Assembly: GCF_003334785.1 (NCBI RefSeq)
Contig: NZ_QOWV01000014.1
Origin: Escherichia coli
Lineage (GTDB): Bacteria; Pseudomonadota; Gammaproteobacteria; Enterobacterales; Enterobacteriaceae
Strand: one strand, 5' to 3'
DNA: 64,000 nt
The position numbers and the translations under genes were made by a program. Below are positions 15,722-53,890 of this stretch, piece by piece (the stretch's first letter is position 1; every line of letters starts with the position of its first letter). Below the pieces are notes generated by a model, which saw only the letters and a list, made by a program, of their open reading frames with translations, was not told the origin of the DNA and did not search any database.

Positions 15722-15756
15722 ACCAAAAAAAACCCGCTGATTAAGCGGGTTTTGAA
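15722..15756. terminator. bidirectional rho-independent terminator between convergent crcB and cspE
   Basis: aaaaaaaacccgctgattaagcgggttttgaa. Confidence 0.8.
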
Positions 15757-15772
15757 TTCTTGCTGACGTATC

Positions 15773-15982
15773 TTACAGAGCGATTACGTTTGCAGCAGAA
15801 GGGCCTTTGGCACCGTTAGTGATTTCGAACTCTACGCGCTGACCTTCAGCAAGAGTTTTAAAACCATTAGTCTGGATTGCAGAGAAGTGTACGAACACGT
15901 CTTTGCTGCCGTCTTCCGGAGTAATGAAACCGAATCCTTTGGACTCATTAAACCACTTAACGTTACCTTTAATCTTAGACAT
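15773..15982 (-). CDS. cspE: cold-shock-domain protein CspE
   Basis: ORF 15773..16012; start at internal Met ([20 protein letters not shown]...) giving 69 aa. Confidence 0.95.
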
Positions 15983-16156
15983 CAAAATTACCTTTACATG
16001 AAAAATAGACACAAATGCTGTGTCGGTTACCAGTACACCAATTGTGGTACGCTTTGTCCAGTGTAACTTTACTAAAAAGTGATAAAAGTCGCGTTATTTT
16101 TGATGTTACTTATTTTAGCTATTGATTTTAAAGAAGTTACTAAAACTTCATTTGTC

Positions 16157-16717
16157 TCAAAACTGAAAGCGCATCCAGGCAAAGTACACATTGCCATTGT
16201 TGTAGGTACCCGGAATGTAGGTCATCTGAAAAGTCACTGGGCCATAACCCACGGAGGCCAATGGCAGTAGAACCGGGAGAGGGATGTAATTCCAGTTATC
16301 GCGTGCCGTTACGCCAGCGGTGAATCCCAGACCTAAATGAAAATTTTCATCCGCCAGCGGTCGCCAGGTACTTTCCCATCCGTATCCGGCAATCGGTTCC
16401 CATTTGTTCCACGAGTCCTTAAATGCCATGGCATACAGGCCATGCCAGTTTCCTTTTTCATCCCAACGCGACAGGCCAAAACCGCCACCCCACGGTCGCT
16501 CGTTATAGCGATCGGTTTTTTCTTTGTCGTAAGCGAAACGTGCATGCCAGGTGATGGCAGGAATATATAAATCATAATGTTCAGGCTGTTGCCAGGTTTG
16601 TGCAATATTTTCTCTAAACGTTGTCATCCACTCATCTGCGTTAGCAAAAACTTTACCAACGCTGATTAACTGAATAAAAACAAAGGAAAAGATAGCGACA
16701 TATTTACTCACGTTCAT
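16157..16717 (-). CDS. pagP: lipid A palmitoyltransferase PagP (CrcA)
   Basis: ORF 16157..16741; start at [12 protein letters not shown]... giving 186 aa outer-membrane enzyme. Confidence 0.92.
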
Positions 16718-28157: not shown

Positions 28158-28185
28158 TACGTTCGCCAAACGCTGAATAAATCAT

Positions 28186-29077: not shown

Positions 29078-29223
29078 TCATCTGATTTACAAAACACGCT
29101 AATTCGTCTTCCATAAACCAAGGCGATTAAGATTTATACATAATGCGCTGCATTGAGGAATTCCCTGAATGTGACGCAAATCACTTCAAAGAGTGAGCAA
29201 CAGTCAGTATCATCATGTGAGTT

Positions 29224-29258
29224 AAACCCTCGCCGCCTGACGGTGAGGGTTTTCTTTT
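29224..29258 (+). terminator. hairpin with T-rich tail between rna and rnk
   Basis: aaaccctcgccgcctgacggtgagggttttctttt. Confidence 0.45.
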
Positions 29259-29306
29259 GGGTATGTTTATCTGCGACACTCGCAGCACCGACGACATGGA
29301 GTAAAA

Positions 29307-29944: not shown

Positions 29945-29947
29945 CGA

Positions 29948-34460: not shown

Positions 34461-34700
34461 CGCCAGCGGCGATAAAAAGTAAAATGGCCCCCTTTCCAGG
34501 TGACCGTGTAATCTGAACTACCCTTTGGTATCTTCAGTGCCTGCCTGCAGGCTGAGGTGTTGCCCTTACAAATGCAACAACGACATGGATTACAACACCC
34601 TCATAAACAAAGGGCAATCACCTGATCTAAGCTCTTACCTATGACAGTGATAGGTTATGCCTTTTACTCGACTTTTGCACTGACTGAAAAGGACAAATTA

Positions 34701-35447
34701 ATGTTAAAAAAGATACTTTTACTGGCTCTGCTTCCTGCAATCGCCTTCGCAGAGGAACTTCCTGCTCCAGTAAAAGCGATTGAAAAACAGGGCATTACAA
34801 TCATCAAAACATTCGATGCCCCCGGAGGAATGAAAGGTTATCTCGGAAAGTATCAGGATATGGGCGTCACCATCTACCTGACTCCAGATGGTAAGCACGC
34901 TATCTCTGGTTACATGTACAACGAGAAAGGTGAAAACCTGAGTAACACACTTATCGAAAAAGAAATTTACGCACCAGCCGGACGCGAAATGTGGCAACGG
35001 ATGGAACAATCCCACTGGCTCCTCGACGGTAAAAAAGATGCGCCGGTCATTGTCTACGTCTTCGCCGATCCGTTCTGCCCATATTGTAAACAGTTCTGGC
35101 AGCAGGCGCGCCCGTGGGTAGATTCTGGCAAAGTGCAATTAAGAACATTGTTGGTTGGGGTTATCAAGCCAGAAAGCCCGGCGACAGCAGCGGCAATTCT
35201 TGCCTCCAAAGATCCCGCAAAAACCTGGCAACAATATGAAGCCTCTGGTGGCAAGCTTAAGCTAAACGTGCCTGCAAACGTAAGTACAGAGCAAATGAAA
35301 GTGTTAAGTGACAATGAGAAACTGATGGACGATCTGGGGGCAAATGTCACGCCGGCTATCTATTACATGAGTAAGGAAAATACGCTACAACAGGCCGTGG
35401 GGTTGCCCGATCAGAAAACGCTTAATATCATTATGGGGAATAAATAA
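34701..35447 (+). CDS. dsbG: periplasmic disulfide isomerase DsbG
   Basis: ORF 34641..35447; start at [13 protein letters not shown]... (248 aa); CPYC thioredoxin motif. Confidence 0.92.
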
Positions 35448-35655
35448 AAGGTAATTCATGGATGGTTGAACTATATCCCTGCTTTTCAACCATCCTAAAA
35501 AAGCATGAATTGCTCGCTCTGCCCTAAGTGGCTGTGCTATTTTAGAAAAACTTAATCCTGAGTTAAGCAAAAAAACATAATCAATAAAAATATATACGCA
35601 AAAAACATTGATTAAGTGAATATATCATGGAAGAAAAATATAACCGGAGTAGTGT

Positions 35656-36558
35656 ATGGCCAATCTCTACGACTTGAAAAAGTTCGACTTAAATCTTCTT
35701 GTCATATTTGAGTGTATTTACCAGCATTTAAGCATTAGCAAAGCTGCTGAATCACTATATATCACCCCATCAGCCGTGAGCCAGTCGTTACAACGCTTAC
35801 GTGCGCAATTTAATGACCCTTTATTCATTCGCTCAGGAAAAGGTATCGCGCCGACGACAACAGGGTTAAATCTGCATCACCATCTTGAGAAAAATCTCAG
35901 AGGCCTTGAACAAACAATTAATATAGTCAATAAGTCCGAACTAAAGAAAAACTTTATTATCTACGGCCCTCAGCTCATTTCTTGCTCTAATAATAGTATG
36001 CTGATCCGCTGCCTACGGCAAGATTCCTCTGTCGAGATTGAGTGCCATGATATCCTCATGTCAGCAGAGAATGCTGAAGAACTGTTGGTTCACCGCAAAG
36101 CCGATCTGGTGATCACCCAAATGCCAGTGATCAGCCGTTCCGTCATTTGCATGCCATTGCATACGATTCGCAATACTCTAATTTGTAGTAATAGGCATCC
36201 ACGAATTACTGACAATAGCACTTATGAACAAATTATGGCAGAAGAGTTCACCCAATTAATATCTAAATCAGCAGGGGTTGATGATATTCAAATGGAAATA
36301 GACGAGAGATTTATGAATCGCAAAATCTCATTTCGTGGTTCCTCTTTGCTGACAATCATTAATAGCATTGCAGTTACAGATTTACTGGGAATAGTCCCCT
36401 ATGAACTTTATAATTTCTACCGTGACTTTCTTAACTTAAAAGAGATAAAACTAGAACATCCGTTACCTTCAATAAAGCTTTACATTTCCTATAATAAATC
36501 TTCTTTAAATAATTTGGTGTTCTCCCGATTTATTGACCGTCTAAATGAGAGTTTTTGA
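35656..36558 (+). CDS. ybdO: LysR-family transcriptional regulator YbdO
   Basis: 300-aa ORF with N-terminal HTH (TPSAVSQSLQRLR); alignable by eye with ybeF along its length; markedly AT-rich. Confidence 0.88.
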   Translation: MANLYDLKKFDLNLLVIFECIYQHLSISKAAESLYITPSAVSQSLQRLRAQFNDPLFIRSGKGIAPTTTGLNLHHHLEKNLRGLEQTINIVNKSELKKNFIIYGPQLISCSNNSMLIRCLRQDSSVEIECHDILMSAENAEELLVHRKADLVITQMPVISRSVICMPLHTIRNTLICSNRHPRITDNSTYEQIMAEEFTQLISKSAGVDDIQMEIDERFMNRKISFRGSSLLTIINSIAVTDLLGIVPYELYNFYRDFLNLKEIKLEHPLPSIKLYISYNKSSLNNLVFSRFIDRLNESF

Positions 36559-36704
36559 TATATAACTACAGACAGCTACTATAACTTTCATCTATTTATT
36601 CACAGCGCGAATGAAAAATAAAACACTCTGCTTTACAGTGTTTACTTTATAATTAACAGACTTATCTCACTGATCACCCTGTAACGTTCAGAGAGCGTCT
36701 TCAG

Positions 36705-37925
36705 ATGTCTATTTATAAAATTCCTCTTCCGCTCAATATTCTGGAAGCTGCACGAGAGCGTATTACCTGGACACTCAACACCCTACCCCGCGTTTGTGTC
36801 TCATTTTCTGGCGGCAAAGACTCTGGTTTAATGCTGCATCTGACAGCCGAACTTGCCCGACAAATGGGCAAAAAAATCTGCGTTTTGTTTATCGACTGGG
36901 AGGCGCAATTCTCTTGCACCATTAACTATGTTCAGTCCCTGCGCGAGTTGTACACCGATGTCATCGAAGAGTTTTACTGGGTTGCGCTCCCGCTTACGAC
37001 GCAAAATTCCCTTTCACAATACCAACCCGAATGGCAGTGCTGGGAACCTGATGTCGAATGGGTACGTCAACCTCCCCAAGATGCGATAACCGACCCTGAC
37101 TTTTTCTCCTTTTACCAGCCAGGCATGACCTTCGAACAATTTGTACGTGAGTTTGCCGAATGGTTTTCACAAAAACGTCCGGCGGCGATGATGATCGGCA
37201 TCCGTGCGGATGAGTCCTACAACCGTTTTGTCGCCATCGCCAGTTTAAATAAACAACGTTTTGCCGACGATAAACCCTGGACTACGGCCGCACCAGGCGG
37301 TCATAGCTGGTACATTTACCCCATTTACGACTGGAAAGTGGCTGATATCTGGACCTGGTATGCAAATCATCAAAGTCTCTGCAACCCACTGTATAACCTA
37401 ATGTATCAGGCAGGCGTTCCTCTGCGTCATATGCGAATTTGCGAACCTTTTGGCCCGGAGCAACGACAAGGATTATGGCTCTATCACGTTATCGAACCGG
37501 ATCGCTGGGCTGCTATGTGCGCACGAGTCAGCGGGGTAAAAAGTGGCGGCATTTACGCCGGACATGACAATCATTTCTATGGGCATCGGAAAATCCTCAA
37601 GCCAGAACATTTAGACTGGCAAGAATATGCATTATTGCTGCTCAATAGCATGCCGGAAAAAACAGCTGAGCATTACCGCAATAAAATCGCCATTTATTTG
37701 CACTGGTATCAGAAAAAAGGCATCGAGGTTCCACAAACCCAGCAAGGGGACATTGGCGCGAAAGATATCCCCTCCTGGCGGCGGATATGCAAAGTTTTAC
37801 TCAATAACGATTACTGGTGTCGGGCATTATCATTTAGCCCCACAAAATCGAAGAACTATCAGCGTTATAACGAACGGATAAAAGGAAAACGTCAGGAATG
37901 GGGGATACTATGCAACAACGATTAA
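36705..37925 (+). CDS. ybdN: PP-loop ATP pyrophosphatase (PAPS-reductase-like) YbdN
   Basis: 406-aa ORF with PP-loop motif SGGKDSG near N-terminus. Confidence 0.88.
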   Translation: MSIYKIPLPLNILEAARERITWTLNTLPRVCVSFSGGKDSGLMLHLTAELARQMGKKICVLFIDWEAQFSCTINYVQSLRELYTDVIEEFYWVALPLTTQNSLSQYQPEWQCWEPDVEWVRQPPQDAITDPDFFSFYQPGMTFEQFVREFAEWFSQKRPAAMMIGIRADESYNRFVAIASLNKQRFADDKPWTTAAPGGHSWYIYPIYDWKVADIWTWYANHQSLCNPLYNLMYQAGVPLRHMRICEPFGPEQRQGLWLYHVIEPDRWAAMCARVSGVKSGGIYAGHDNHFYGHRKILKPEHLDWQEYALLLLNSMPEKTAEHYRNKIAIYLHWYQKKGIEVPQTQQGDIGAKDIPSWRRICKVLLNNDYWCRALSFSPTKSKNYQRYNERIKGKRQEWGILCNND

Positions 37926-38527
37926 CGCAGGATTTAACGCAATTTCTCGCCAGCTTGCCGGAAGATGATCGCATCAAAGCGATTAATGAAATCCGCATGG
38001 CGATCCATCAGGTTAGCCCCTTTCGTGAAGAGCCAGTGGATTGCGTTCTGTGGGTTAAAAACAGCCAACTTATGCCTAATGATTACAACCCAAACAACGT
38101 GGCACCACCCGAAAAAAAACTGCTGCAAAAATCCATTGAAATAGATGGTTTTACCCAACCCATTGTGGTCACACATACGGATAAAAATGCCATGGAAATC
38201 GTGGATGGTTTTCACCGCCATGAAATTGGTAAAGGCTCATCATCATTAAAATTACGCTTAAAAGGTTATTTGCCGGTGACCTGTCTGGAAGGTACGCGTA
38301 ATCAACGCATCGCCGCGACTATTCGTCATAATCGCGCTCGTGGACGCCATCAAATCACCGCCATGTCGGAAATCGTCCGTGAACTTAGCCAGTTGGGATG
38401 GGACGATAATAAAATTGGCAAAGAGCTGGGAATGGACAGCGACGAAGTGCTGCGCCTGAAGCAAATTAACGGCCTGCAAGAGTTGTTTGCCGACCGTCAA
38501 TATTCCCGCGCCTGGACGGTTAAATAG
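37898..38527 (+). CDS. ybdM: ParB/sulfiredoxin-like domain protein YbdM
   Basis: 209-aa ORF overlapping ybdN 3' end by 28 nt. Confidence 0.85.
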   Translation: MGDTMQQRLTQDLTQFLASLPEDDRIKAINEIRMAIHQVSPFREEPVDCVLWVKNSQLMPNDYNPNNVAPPEKKLLQKSIEIDGFTQPIVVTHTDKNAMEIVDGFHRHEIGKGSSSLKLRLKGYLPVTCLEGTRNQRIAATIRHNRARGRHQITAMSEIVRELSQLGWDDNKIGKELGMDSDEVLRLKQINGLQELFADRQYSRAWTVK

Positions 38528-39688
38528 CTAAAGCTGGCGCAGGCGTTCAGCTGCTGCCAGCAACGTCGATTCCTTCTTGGCAAAACAGAGACGAATCAGT
38601 TTATGTGGGAAGGGATCGGCGCAAAACACCGACAGCGGAATCGCCGCTACGCCGTGCTCCTGCGTCAGCCACTGGCAAAACTCAACATCATCCAGGGTAG
38701 AAACCGCGCTGTAATCCACCAGCAAAAAGTATGTACCTTCACACGGTAAAATCTCCAGCCGGCTTTCATTTAAAGCATTCACCAGAATATCGCGCTTCTG
38801 GCGATAAAAGTCCGGTAACGCAAGATAATGCTCAGGTTCTGCACGTAGCATATCAGCAAGCGCCAGCTGTGCCGGGGTATTCACCGAAAAGGTCAGATAC
38901 TGATGTACCTTGCGAATTTCGGCGCTGATGGGCGCTGGCGCAACACAATAACCCACTTTCCAGCCGGTCATATGATAGGTCTTGCCAAATGAAGAAACCG
39001 CCACTGCCCGCTCACGCAGCTGCGGATGCGCCAGCACACTGGCATGGCCCTGTTGTGAAAAGTTGATGTGCTCGTAGACTTCATCGCTAATGACAAAAAT
39101 CTCGTGCCCGGCGATCGCCTGCCACAAAGCGGCGAAATCAGCCTGCTGCCAGACAGTTGCACTGGGGTTATGCGGAGTGTTGAGGATCACCAGTCTGGTG
39201 CGCTCGCTTAATAATGCGGCAAATTCCTGCCAGTCAACGCGAAAATGCGGTGGTTGCAGTGCCATACGCTTCACTATTCCCCCAGAAAGCGCGATGGCGG
39301 GGGCGTAACTGTCATAGCTGGGATCAAAACAAATCACTTCATCGCCATTGCGCACCAGTGCGGTAATCGCCGCGTATAACGCTTCCGTCGCCCCTGCCGT
39401 TACGGTGATATCGCTATCGGCATCTGGTTGATAGCCATACAAACGTTCCGTTTTCTGAGCAATCGCCTCGCGCAAGGCCTGCACGCCGGTCATGGGCGCG
39501 TATTGGTTTGCCCCCTGTGCAACGTGGTGCGCCAGCCGCTCCTGTAAATAGCGCGGACCATCAAAATCAGGAAAGCCTTGCGACAGGTTAATCGCCTGGT
39601 GTTGCTGCGCCAGCGCGCTCATCTGGGTGAAAATAGTGGTGCCAAGTTGTGGAAGTTTGCTTTGTGGAATCAGAGGGTTATTTGTCAT
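38528..39688 (-). CDS. ybdL: PLP-dependent methionine aminotransferase YbdL
   Basis: 386-aa class-I aminotransferase ORF (SFGKTYHMTGWKVGY lysine region). Confidence 0.9.
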   Translation of the reverse strand: MTNNPLIPQSKLPQLGTTIFTQMSALAQQHQAINLSQGFPDFDGPRYLQERLAHHVAQGANQYAPMTGVQALREAIAQKTERLYGYQPDADSDITVTAGATEALYAAITALVRNGDEVICFDPSYDSYAPAIALSGGIVKRMALQPPHFRVDWQEFAALLSERTRLVILNTPHNPSATVWQQADFAALWQAIAGHEIFVISDEVYEHINFSQQGHASVLAHPQLRERAVAVSSFGKTYHMTGWKVGYCVAPAPISAEIRKVHQYLTFSVNTPAQLALADMLRAEPEHYLALPDFYRQKRDILVNALNESRLEILPCEGTYFLLVDYSAVSTLDDVEFCQWLTQEHGVAAIPLSVFCADPFPHKLIRLCFAKKESTLLAAAERLRQL

Positions 39689-39796
39689 TTTTATTGTACC
39701 TGACGAAGTTGCGTGTTGAAGGCACTATAACACGATGCTAGTATTTGGCAATCAAGACGTTTAGATGTCTAAATAAAACAATAAGGACAACACAAC

Positions 39797-40885
39797 ATGC
39801 CTCACAATCCTATCCGCGTGGTCGTCGGCCCGGCTAACTACTTTTCACATCCAGGAAGTTTCAATCACCTGCACGATTTTTTCACTGATGAACAACTTTC
39901 TCGCGCGGTGTGGATCTACGGCAAACGCGCCATTGCTGCGGCGCAAACCAAACTTCCGCCAGCGTTTGGACTGCCAGGGGCAAAGCATATTTTGTTTCGC
40001 GGTCATTGCAGCGAAAGCGATGTACAACAACTGGCGGCTGAGTCCGGTGACGACCGCAGCGTGGTGATTGGCGTCGGTGGCGGTGCACTGCTCGACACCG
40101 CGAAAGCCCTCGCCCGCCGTCTCGGTCTGCCGTTTGTTGCCGTTCCGACGATCGCCGCCACCTGCGCCGCCTGGACACCGCTCTCCGTCTGGTATAATGA
40201 TGCCGGACAGGCGCTGCATTATGAGATTTTCGACGACGCCAATTTTATGGTGCTGGTGGAACCGGAGATTATCCTCAATGCACCGCAACAATATCTGCTG
40301 GCGGGGATCGGTGACACGCTGGCGAAATGGTATGAAGCGGTGGTGCTGGCTCCGCAACCAGAAACGTTGCCGCTAACCGTGCGACTGGGGATCAATAATG
40401 CGCAAGCCATTCGCGACGTCTTGTTAAACAGTAGCGAACAGGCGCTGAGCGATCAGCAAAATCAACAGTTAACGCAATCATTTTGCGATGTGGTGGATGC
40501 TATTATTGCTGGTGGTGGGATGGTTGGTGGTCTGGGCGATCGTTTTACGCGTGTGGCGGCAGCTCATGCCGTGCATAACGGTCTGACCGTGCTGCCGCAA
40601 ACCGAGAAGTTTCTCCACGGCACCAAAGTCGCCTACGGAATTCTGGTGCAAAGCGCCTTGCTGGGTCAGGATGATGTGCTGGCGCAATTAACTGGAGCGT
40701 ATCAGCGTTTTCATCTGCCGACTACACTGGCGGAGCTGGAAGTGGATATCAATAATCAGGCGGAGATCGACAAAGTGATTGCCCACACCCTGCGTCCGGT
40801 GGAGTCCATTCATTACCTGCCAGTCACGCTGACACCAGATACGTTGCGTGCAGCGTTCAAAAAAGTGGAATCGTTTAAAGCCTGA
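39797..40885 (+). CDS. ybdH: iron-type hydroxycarboxylate dehydrogenase (HcxA/YbdH)
   Basis: 362-aa ORF resembling glycerol/1,2-propanediol dehydrogenase family. Confidence 0.88.
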   Translation: MPHNPIRVVVGPANYFSHPGSFNHLHDFFTDEQLSRAVWIYGKRAIAAAQTKLPPAFGLPGAKHILFRGHCSESDVQQLAAESGDDRSVVIGVGGGALLDTAKALARRLGLPFVAVPTIAATCAAWTPLSVWYNDAGQALHYEIFDDANFMVLVEPEIILNAPQQYLLAGIGDTLAKWYEAVVLAPQPETLPLTVRLGINNAQAIRDVLLNSSEQALSDQQNQQLTQSFCDVVDAIIAGGGMVGGLGDRFTRVAAAHAVHNGLTVLPQTEKFLHGTKVAYGILVQSALLGQDDVLAQLTGAYQRFHLPTTLAELEVDINNQAEIDKVIAHTLRPVESIHYLPVTLTPDTLRAAFKKVESFKA

Positions 40886-40894
40886 CGTACAAAT

Positions 40895-49720: not shown

Positions 49721-49723
49721 GCA

Positions 49724-53078: not shown

Positions 53079-53890
53079 CCGAATCAGTAGCCCGTTTGCG
53101 CGGCGAACAGTTAACCCTGGGATATGGCAAATATACCGTTGCGGAAAATCTGACTGTAGAAATACCTGATGGTCACTTCACGGCAATTATCGGGCCAAAT
53201 GGCTGCGGTAAATCCACGTTACTGCGTACCTTAAGCCGCCTGATGACGCCTGCTCATGGGCATGTCTGGCTGGATGGCGAGCACATTCAACATTACGCCA
53301 GTAAAGAGGTTGCACGCCGGATTGGTCTGTTGGCGCAAAATGCTACCACGCCGGGCGATATCACCGTGCAGGAGCTGGTGGCGCGTGGACGTTATCCGCA
53401 TCAACCGCTGTTTACCCGCTGGCGCAAAGAGGATGAAGAAGCGGTAACGAAAGCAATGCAGGCCACGGGAATAACTCATCTGGCAGATCAAAGCGTGGAT
53501 ACCCTTTCTGGCGGACAACGCCAGCGAGCGTGGATCGCGATGGTGCTGGCCCAGGAAACGGCAATTATGCTGCTCGACGAACCCACGACCTGGCTGGATA
53601 TCAGTCATCAGATTGATTTGCTGGAGTTGTTAAGCGAACTGAACCGCGAAAAAGGCTATACCCTGGCGGCGGTGCTGCACGATCTTAATCAGGCCTGTCG
53701 TTACGCCAGCCATTTGATTGCATTGCGGGAAGGGAAAATTGTTGCTCAGGGAGCGCCGAAGGAGATTGTCACTGCTGAACTGATTGAGCGCATTTATGGT
53801 CTGCGCTGCATGATCATTGACGATCCAGTTGCCGGAACGCCGCTTGTGGTGCCGCTCGGACGAACGGCACCTTCAACCGCAAATAGTTAA
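53075..53890 (+). CDS. fepC: ferric-enterobactin ABC transporter ATPase
   Basis: ORF 52934..53890; start at MTESVARLRG... (271 aa); Walker A GPNGCGKST, signature LSGGQRQR. Confidence 0.93.
   Translation: MTESVARLRGEQLTLGYGKYTVAENLTVEIPDGHFTAIIGPNGCGKSTLLRTLSRLMTPAHGHVWLDGEHIQHYASKEVARRIGLLAQNATTPGDITVQELVARGRYPHQPLFTRWRKEDEEAVTKAMQATGITHLADQSVDTLSGGQRQRAWIAMVLAQETAIMLLDEPTTWLDISHQIDLLELLSELNREKGYTLAAVLHDLNQACRYASHLIALREGKIVAQGAPKEIVTAELIERIYGLRCMIIDDPVAGTPLVVPLGRTAPSTANS

Follow-up and report, generated by a model that had tools for sequence, protein, structure and literature searches.

How do two convergent transcripts end when no DNA separates their genes? The question is raised by ybdM and ybdL of Escherichia coli, which meet tail to tail in the 64,000 nucleotides (nt) analysed here (part of contig NZ_QOWV01000014.1, assembly GCF_003334785.1; this whole stretch is called the window, and all positions refer to it unless a locus is named). 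An earlier note on this DNA, made from the sequence alone, held that the abutting stop codons leave no room for terminators, that transcription from either side must run into the opposing gene, and that this may produce antisense interference between a "ybdONM module" and ybdL. Our analysis suggests a different arrangement, to which we give a probability of about 0.6: the ybdL mRNA would end at a hairpin, H2, that lies inside the convergent ybdM gene, and the ybdNM transcripts would be ended by Rho within antisense ybdL.

The ybdM-ybdL junction and hairpin H2

The junction is formed by the following elements:

37898..38527, + strand: ybdM coding sequence (CDS), 209 amino acids (aa); open reading frame (ORF) list, RefSeq, orthologues

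38528..39688, - strand: ybdL CDS, 386 aa, methionine aminotransferase; ORF list, RefSeq, NF006569, Protein Data Bank (PDB) 1U08

38525..38530, both strands: junction TAG/CTA, the ybdM stop and then the ybdL stop; sequence, ORF list, RefSeq

On the + strand the junction reads ACG GTT AAA TAG CTA AAG CTG GCG. The ybdM stop, TAG (38525-38527, +), directly adjoins the ybdL stop, also TAG and seen on the + strand as CTA (38528-38530, -), so that the spacer is 0 nt, as the earlier note had stated and as the sequence, the ORF list and RefSeq all bear out. Structurally the two genes are what is expected of a convergent excludon, neighbours on opposite strands, tail to tail; they are not tail-to-tail overlapping genes, since their stops are adjacent and the CDSs share no base. 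The same abutting coordinates are found in the RefSeq annotation of MG1655 and in that of a strain 95% identical. The window is K-12 DNA; the junction itself is 100% identical to that of MG1655, the window being in reverse orientation, and of 5426 complete E. coli genomes, 5407 carry the 801-nt segment around it as one contiguous piece.

The two genes do end where they are annotated to. YbdL matches the NCBIfam profile NF006569 over positions 2-386 of 386 and aligns end to end with the PDB 1U08 chain (386 aa), while in 47 species every YbdM orthologue has the C-terminus AWT(V/I)K followed by a stop. Neither gene, then, ends before the stop given in the ORF list, which is where the claim of adjacency could have failed. 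YbdM also shows a weak match to ParB_N (residues 54-109). The abutment of the stop codons was already known, as it is present in the annotation of E. coli K-12.

Beyond the ybdL stop, two elements were found on the - strand within the 3' end of ybdM:

38465..38501, - strand: hairpin H2 (AUUGACGGUC-GGCA ... UGCA-GGCCGUUAAU), candidate ybdL terminator or 3'-end protecting stem; folding, resampling, pair counts

38455..38464, - strand: U-rich tail after H2 (UUGCUUCAGG), an imperfect U-tract; hairpin/U-tract scoring

H2 covers nucleotides 27-63 after the ybdL stop and is antisense to codons -9 to -20 of ybdM; it is thus a G+C-rich hairpin placed soon after the stop, as in an intrinsic terminator. 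In K-12 its energy on the - strand is -16.6 kcal/mol (z -3.3), and none of 200 shuffled sequences was equally stable. The same region folds less well on the + (ybdM-sense) strand (-9.1 kcal/mol, z -0.7) because several of the pairs are G-U. With this weak fold and no U-tract on the + strand, H2 does not have the properties of a bidirectional terminator.

The hairpin is conserved beyond E. coli and is more stable than the encoded peptide requires. In 35 of the 47 species it folds at -10 kcal/mol or below (median -15.2). When the codons of each species were redrawn according to codon usage pooled over these gene ends, with the peptide kept, the expected mean energy was -6.7 kcal/mol vs -13.9 observed; the mean z was -2.15, with p<=0.05 in 30 species, and 44 of the 47 lay below their own expectation. 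When the 606-nt junction alignment was scanned in sliding windows (115 on each of 2 strands, 230 in all), H2 was the single outlier, with a mean z of -2.34 vs -1.1 for the runner-up independent window.

Codon choice follows the pairing. At the wobble sites of the arms, pair-compatible codons are favoured (GAC in 36 of 38 cases against a background of 46%, CTG in 45 of 47 against 60%); the codons of the loop vary freely. One arm pair alternates between U-A and C-G, with 19 sequences each. Counting the rows that lack ybdMN, 80.6% of the cells at H2 pairs are paired, vs at most 56% in slid registers, and changes on both sides were observed at 6 of the 12 pairs, a level matched by 1 of 500 shuffles.

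The hairpin is also retained where ybdM has been lost. In three ybdMN-less species with a ybdO-like gene (L024, 4659-4735; L074, 4659-4735; L058, 4659-4740), some 70 nt from the 3' end of the former ybdM are kept after the ybdL stop without any indel relative to E. coli. In all three the hairpin is not only kept but strengthened (-15.7, -25.3 and -45 kcal/mol), with compensatory changes at three further pairs. L024 and L074 share their downstream sequence, and their loss of ybdMN was probably one deletion event; the loss in L058 looks independent. Since the hairpin outlives the coding function of its host gene, it is not easily accounted for as a side effect of the YbdM peptide. A conserved hairpin in the synonymous sites of the ybdM end adds a small new detail, though one whose kind is already known.

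Where the two transcripts may end

The view that convergent transcription enters the opposing gene agrees with published data. At zero spacer, a transcript that includes its full stop codon abuts or enters the neighbour, and ExcludonFinder (Sanmartin et al., Nucleic Acids Research (NAR) 2025, PMC12288877) lists ybdL-ybdM among 165 convergent excludons of MG1655, with RNA-seq overlap in at least 50% of 58 samples. According to the same paper, short spacers are typical, and a predicted terminator is found inside the neighbour's transcription unit for 146 of the 165 pairs.

Two stretches downstream of the stops are candidates for the loading of Rho:

38372..38488, - strand: C-rich, G-poor stretch of ybdL read-through RNA, candidate Rho loading region; C/G 1.71-2.17

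38645..38800, + strand: C-rich, G-poor stretch of ybdM read-through RNA, antisense to ybdL, candidate Rho loading region; C/G 1.64-1.75

Within the window, the C/G ratios of these stretches rank at the 95th-99th percentile, the ybdL-side value of 2.17 being at the 99th. A stretch resembling a Rho utilization (rut) site (about 80 nt, untranslated, C-rich and G-poor) thus follows both stops; this is generic to antisense RNA and hence weak evidence. The scan of the junction alignment revealed no conserved hairpin after the ybdM stop, and no Rfam family was found at the junction at E<=1.

As read from these features, H2 is most likely the 3'-end determinant of ybdL, acting as a weak intrinsic terminator, as an exonuclease stop after Rho termination, or as both. 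The ribosome would leave ybdL at its UAG (38530-38528) and the polymerase would continue antisense to ybdM, the nascent ybdL RNA folding into H2 (38501-38465). Some polymerases may terminate at the imperfect U-tract after the hairpin; the remaining ones would be stopped by Rho loaded at 38488-38372, and 3' exonucleases would trim their transcripts back to H2. The mature ybdL mRNA would then carry a 3' untranslated region of ~65-70 nt, fully complementary to the last ~21 codons of ybdM. Rho would most likely terminate the ybdNM transcripts, which have no conserved hairpin, a few hundred nt at most into antisense ybdL, in the region of the C>G stretch at 38645-38800. In such an arrangement the 3'-end element of ybdL is accommodated inside ybdM, and the two genes would handle their transcript ends differently. 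The assertion that there is no room for terminators needs amendment, as an absent spacer is not an absent terminator: a conserved ybdL-sense hairpin, a candidate terminator, lies inside the 3' coding end of ybdM, and stretches suited to Rho follow both stops.

A close parallel is found in the transcripts of Dar and Sorek (NAR, 2018), Rho-dependent ones whose mature 3' ends are reportedly set by a stem-loop after exonucleolytic trimming. Similar to these, H2 is stable, has no strong U-tract and is next to a C-rich, G-poor untranslated stretch; unlike them, it is situated within the CDS of a convergent gene rather than in a spacer. With canonical and bidirectional intrinsic terminators, such as those at 28181/28217, 31883/31901 and 14059/14078 of the window, it shares a candidate role, as these end convergent transcripts, and elements of this kind follow ybdL in ybdMN-less species. 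H2 differs from them in its long loop, its poor U-tract, a good fold on one strand only and a score far below theirs. Besides the three pairs named, opposite-strand pairs of high-scoring hairpins with U-tracts that resemble bidirectional terminators were observed in the window at 15732/15750, 10579/10606 and 29226/29250, in contrast with the ybdL/ybdM junction.

Several observations weigh against assigning H2 this role. First, it is not a canonical intrinsic terminator: its U-tract is poor (UUGCUUC or UUUGCUU, T-score 2.6), and a combined hairpin and U-tract score places it at 133 of 1513 within the window, with about 15 obvious terminators far higher (the score, of the d'Aubenton-Carafa type, serves for ranking within the window only, its absolute values being meaningless). 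A consensus promoter and terminator scan of 35400-40000 did not list it either; that scan gave 5 terminator-like sites vs 5.7 expected, none of them positioned to end ybdL or ybdM. Second, RNAalifold on the 47 aligned junctions found no more than a trivial helix of 5 bp (-1.55 kcal/mol) and failed to recover H2. Third, H2 is weak or absent in Kluyvera and Pseudocitrobacter, which nonetheless keep the zero gap. Fourth, the species are related, and the resampling and shuffle statistics overstate their independence; moreover, the register slid by -3 has a similar covariation score. A block test of synonymous entropy over the last 20 codons was non-significant for both genes (p=0.12 for ybdM, p=0.29 for ybdL), and H2 stands out only in the structure-aware test. 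Where ybdMN is missing, the hairpin is sited between ybdL and the convergent ybdO-like gene, and could serve that gene too. Among published 3'-end data, the supplements of Adams 2021 and of the TRS paper contain no ybdL or ybdM entries. Finally, the overlap criterion behind the ExcludonFinder listing is passed almost automatically at zero gap.

Some of these observations would also be expected if nothing functional existed at the junction, H2 arising as a side effect of codon bias and the YbdM peptide (DR...NGL), and both transcripts being ended by generic Rho termination of untranslated antisense RNA. The empty RNAalifold consensus, the two genera without H2, the block-test result for ybdM and the phylogenetic non-independence of the species are all in line with this explanation, as are the C>G stretches after both stops; moreover, the preferred codons CTG, AAC, GGC and CGT are the pair-compatible ones as well. 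However, recoding with peptide and codon usage kept gives far weaker folds, H2 is the lone outlier of the junction scan, the preference for GAC greatly exceeds its background, the strand asymmetry arises from G-U pairs, and where ybdM has ceased to code, the hairpin is still there, free of indels and with compensatory changes. We consider a junction devoid of function possible but rather unlikely, and prefer H2 as the probable 3' end of the ybdL mRNA.

Persistence of the zero spacer and the question of interference

Tight convergent junctions are common in this region. Nine convergent pairs are present in the MG1655 annotation of the 64 kb:

53887-53890: fepE/fepC, gap -4 nt (overlap)

38527/38528: ybdL/ybdM, gap 0 nt

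49721-49723: entS/fepB, gap 3 nt

29945-29947: ybdR/yldA, gap 3 nt

40886-40894: ybdD/hcxA, gap 9 nt

Four further convergent pairs: gaps 40, 53, 100 and 120 nt

The gap is thus 9 nt or less in five of the nine pairs, and the abutment of ybdL and ybdM is ordinary for its neighbourhood, neither rare nor new. From the same window, ExcludonFinder (PMC12288877) also lists entS-fepB, ybdD-hcxA and ybdR-yldA.

One genome per species carrying YbdL was scanned, which yielded 80 loci; at 53 of them ybdM is convergent with and downstream of ybdL. The stop-to-stop gap is exactly 0 in 51 of these 53 species, which belong to at least 11 genera (Escherichia, Salmonella, Citrobacter, Enterobacter, Klebsiella, Raoultella, Kluyvera, Lelliottia, Pseudocitrobacter, Superficieibacter and Huaxiibacter). 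Across the zero-gap species YbdM identity falls to 59% and all three stops, TAG, TAA and TGA, are in use, and the last 75 codons of both ybdL and ybdM align without gaps. In the other two species, both Citrobacter, 13 nt (TGACGYGATTTCG; L015 4662-4674 and L050 4662-4674) are inserted between the stops, starting with a second in-frame ybdL stop, which means that a spacer is tolerated there. In species without ybdMN (Kosakonia, Cedecea, Buttiauxella, Pantoea, Mangrovibacter and others), ybdL is followed by a spacer, often with a canonical hairpin and T-run.

The abutment is old, and is most likely a frozen accident of a compacted junction. The stops are unable to move inward because both C-termini are conserved to the last residue; with the C-termini so constrained, a single insertion site, and an insertion of 13 nt tolerated in one lineage, the zero gap can persist without selection for abutment. 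Selection for the zero gap itself was therefore set aside. The abutment as such matters little, being annotated, with its overlap catalogued and with equally tight pairs common in the window. The added value is modest: a worked example of a zero-length spacer, and of a probable 3'-end hairpin that is written in the synonymous sites of a neighbour and kept after deletion of that neighbour. If confirmed, the junction would provide a clean test case for selection of antisense RNA structure on synonymous sites, as well as for the regulatory consequence of zero-spacer "excludons" in the catalogue. For recoding projects it carries a caution, as synonymous edits at the ybdM 3' end could alter the ybdL mRNA.

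Antisense interference across the junction, the last element of the earlier note, can be judged from published expression data. The "ybdONM module" is not a single transcript: ybdO/citR is transcribed on its own and represses the ybdNM operon (PMC9068703). Deletion of citR raised ybdN by 5.5 log2 and ybdM by 2.5 log2 (PMC9068703 Table 1); ybdL is missing from the main-text table of differentially expressed genes in that study, and expression of ybdNM is very low there, with base means of 20-36. The induction of ybdM was 8-fold below that of co-operonic ybdN, for which antisense damping by ybdL, Rho polarity and differential decay are candidate causes. In Salmonella (PMC11481890) the two genes co-vary, ybdM moving with ybdL and not against it; the strandedness of the library is not stated in the text searched, and the co-variation could be ybdL read-through counted under ybdM. 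Both ybdL and hcxA follow the met regulon (PMC11481890). These indirect data lean against a strong interference effect, and if there is a regulatory effect, it is probably small and runs in one direction, from ybdL onto ybdM, which is weakly expressed and repressed by CitR/H-NS.

A stronger version holds that the abutment has been selected as a regulatory excludon, in which, owing to the overlap, ybdL (methionine salvage, under MetJ) and ybdNM (under CitR) would be mutually exclusive through polymerase collision and cleavage of duplexes by RNase III. The ybdL-ybdM pair resembles the catalogued convergent excludons in being one of them, convergent neighbours with overlapping transcripts; it differs in a spacer of exactly zero, and for this pair the listing in PMC12288877 stands for overlap, not for mutual exclusion, and confirms transcription of both genes more than regulation. 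The conservation of the zero gap over many genera also speaks for such an excludon, but it is expected without selection, given the constrained C-termini and the single insertion site, and the two Citrobacter tolerate 13 nt between the stops; five of the nine convergent pairs of the window are equally tight. The lag of ybdM behind ybdN in the citR deletion could reflect damping by antisense ybdL, and head-on collisions of polymerases have been proposed, in a preprint, to terminate transcription at convergent genes. However, derepression of ybdNM does not bring ybdL into the main-text table, the co-variation in Salmonella is positive, and the very low expression of ybdNM further counts against the proposal. 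Altogether, we regard a selected regulatory excludon as improbable.

The boldest reading would join both ideas: the last ~20 codons of ybdM would be a selected dual-coding segment, specifying the YbdM C-terminus on one strand and a terminator or 3'-stabilising hairpin of the ybdL mRNA on the other, and MetJ-controlled ybdL would gate CitR-controlled ybdNM post-transcriptionally, as a functional excludon conserved across Enterobacteriaceae. We hold this to be similarly doubtful.

A second hairpin, H1, lies upstream of H2, in the 3' end of ybdL itself:

38533..38561, no strand assigned: hairpin H1, last 10 codons of ybdL, followed on the - strand by UUUAGCUAUUU across both stops; folding, conservation

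It is highly improbable that ybdL ends at its own stop, with H1 and UUUAGCUAUUU as an intrinsic terminator and transcription barely entering ybdM: in K-12 H1 does fold at -17 kcal/mol on the - strand with a U-rich run directly after it, and it is the top-scoring site near the junction (rank 48 of 1513 in the window), but its z vs shuffles is only -1.4, it reaches -10 kcal/mol or lower in just 20 of 47 species with a mean z vs synonymous recoding of -0.56, a ribosome at the ybdL stop would cover and melt it, and ExcludonFinder (PMC12288877) reports ybdL/ybdM overlap. As a self-contained ybdL terminator H1 was rejected, being unconserved beyond a subset of species and no more stable than synonymous recoding would predict.

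Further inside ybdL, about 100 nt before its stop, the second most negative z of the junction scan (-1.1) marks a terminator-like hairpin, GTAGCGGCGATTCCGCTGT followed by CGGTGTTTTG (38632-38650, -), possibly an internal pause or attenuation site, or a product of chance.

Flanking genes and other features of the window

Upstream of the two genes the following features were identified:

36705..37925, + strand: ybdN, phosphoadenosine phosphosulfate (PAPS)-reductase-like, first gene of the CitR-repressed ybdNM operon; ORF list, RefSeq, profile match

39751..39724, - strand: best promoter-like site for ybdL; promoter scan

39755-39770, - strand: tandem MetJ-box-like sequence AGACGTTTAGATGTCT; 2 mismatches to AGACGTCT x2

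The CDSs of ybdN and ybdM overlap by 28 nt (37898-37925), with an overlap of equal length in other genera. In three species tblastn matches begin at YbdM residue 5, and hence the true ybdM start may be the second ATG. In their domain types and overlapping two-gene organization, ybdN and ybdM resemble IbrA/IbrB-type pairs (a PAPS-reductase-like and a ParB-like protein), and RefSeq names YbdM an "IbrB-like domain-containing protein"; this likeness concerns the gene products and not the junction. PADLOC gave only weak DndC, BrxP and methyltransferase matches for YbdN and YbdM and called no defence system.

The MetJ-box-like sequence is the sole site with at most 4 mismatches in the 64 kb. It lies between the divergent ybdL and hcxA, just upstream of the promoter-like site of ybdL, and as a putative MetJ box it would agree with reports that ybdL and ybdH co-vary with met genes.

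Together with its flanks, the ybdO/citR gene (35400-36750) is AT-rich, with a GC content of 0.31-0.35 vs ~0.5-0.6 in neighbouring genes, and the ybdO-ybdNM block is absent beside ybdL in Kosakonia, Cedecea, Pantoea and others. The low GC content is consistent with the reported silencing by H-NS and with a foreign origin of this block.

Elsewhere in the window, Rfam matches above the gathering score were found for the rnk leader (29153-29261, +), a cspA-type thermoregulator at cspE (15725-16167, -), and the small RNAs STnc70 (34474-34567, -) and ES036 (63095-63136, +).

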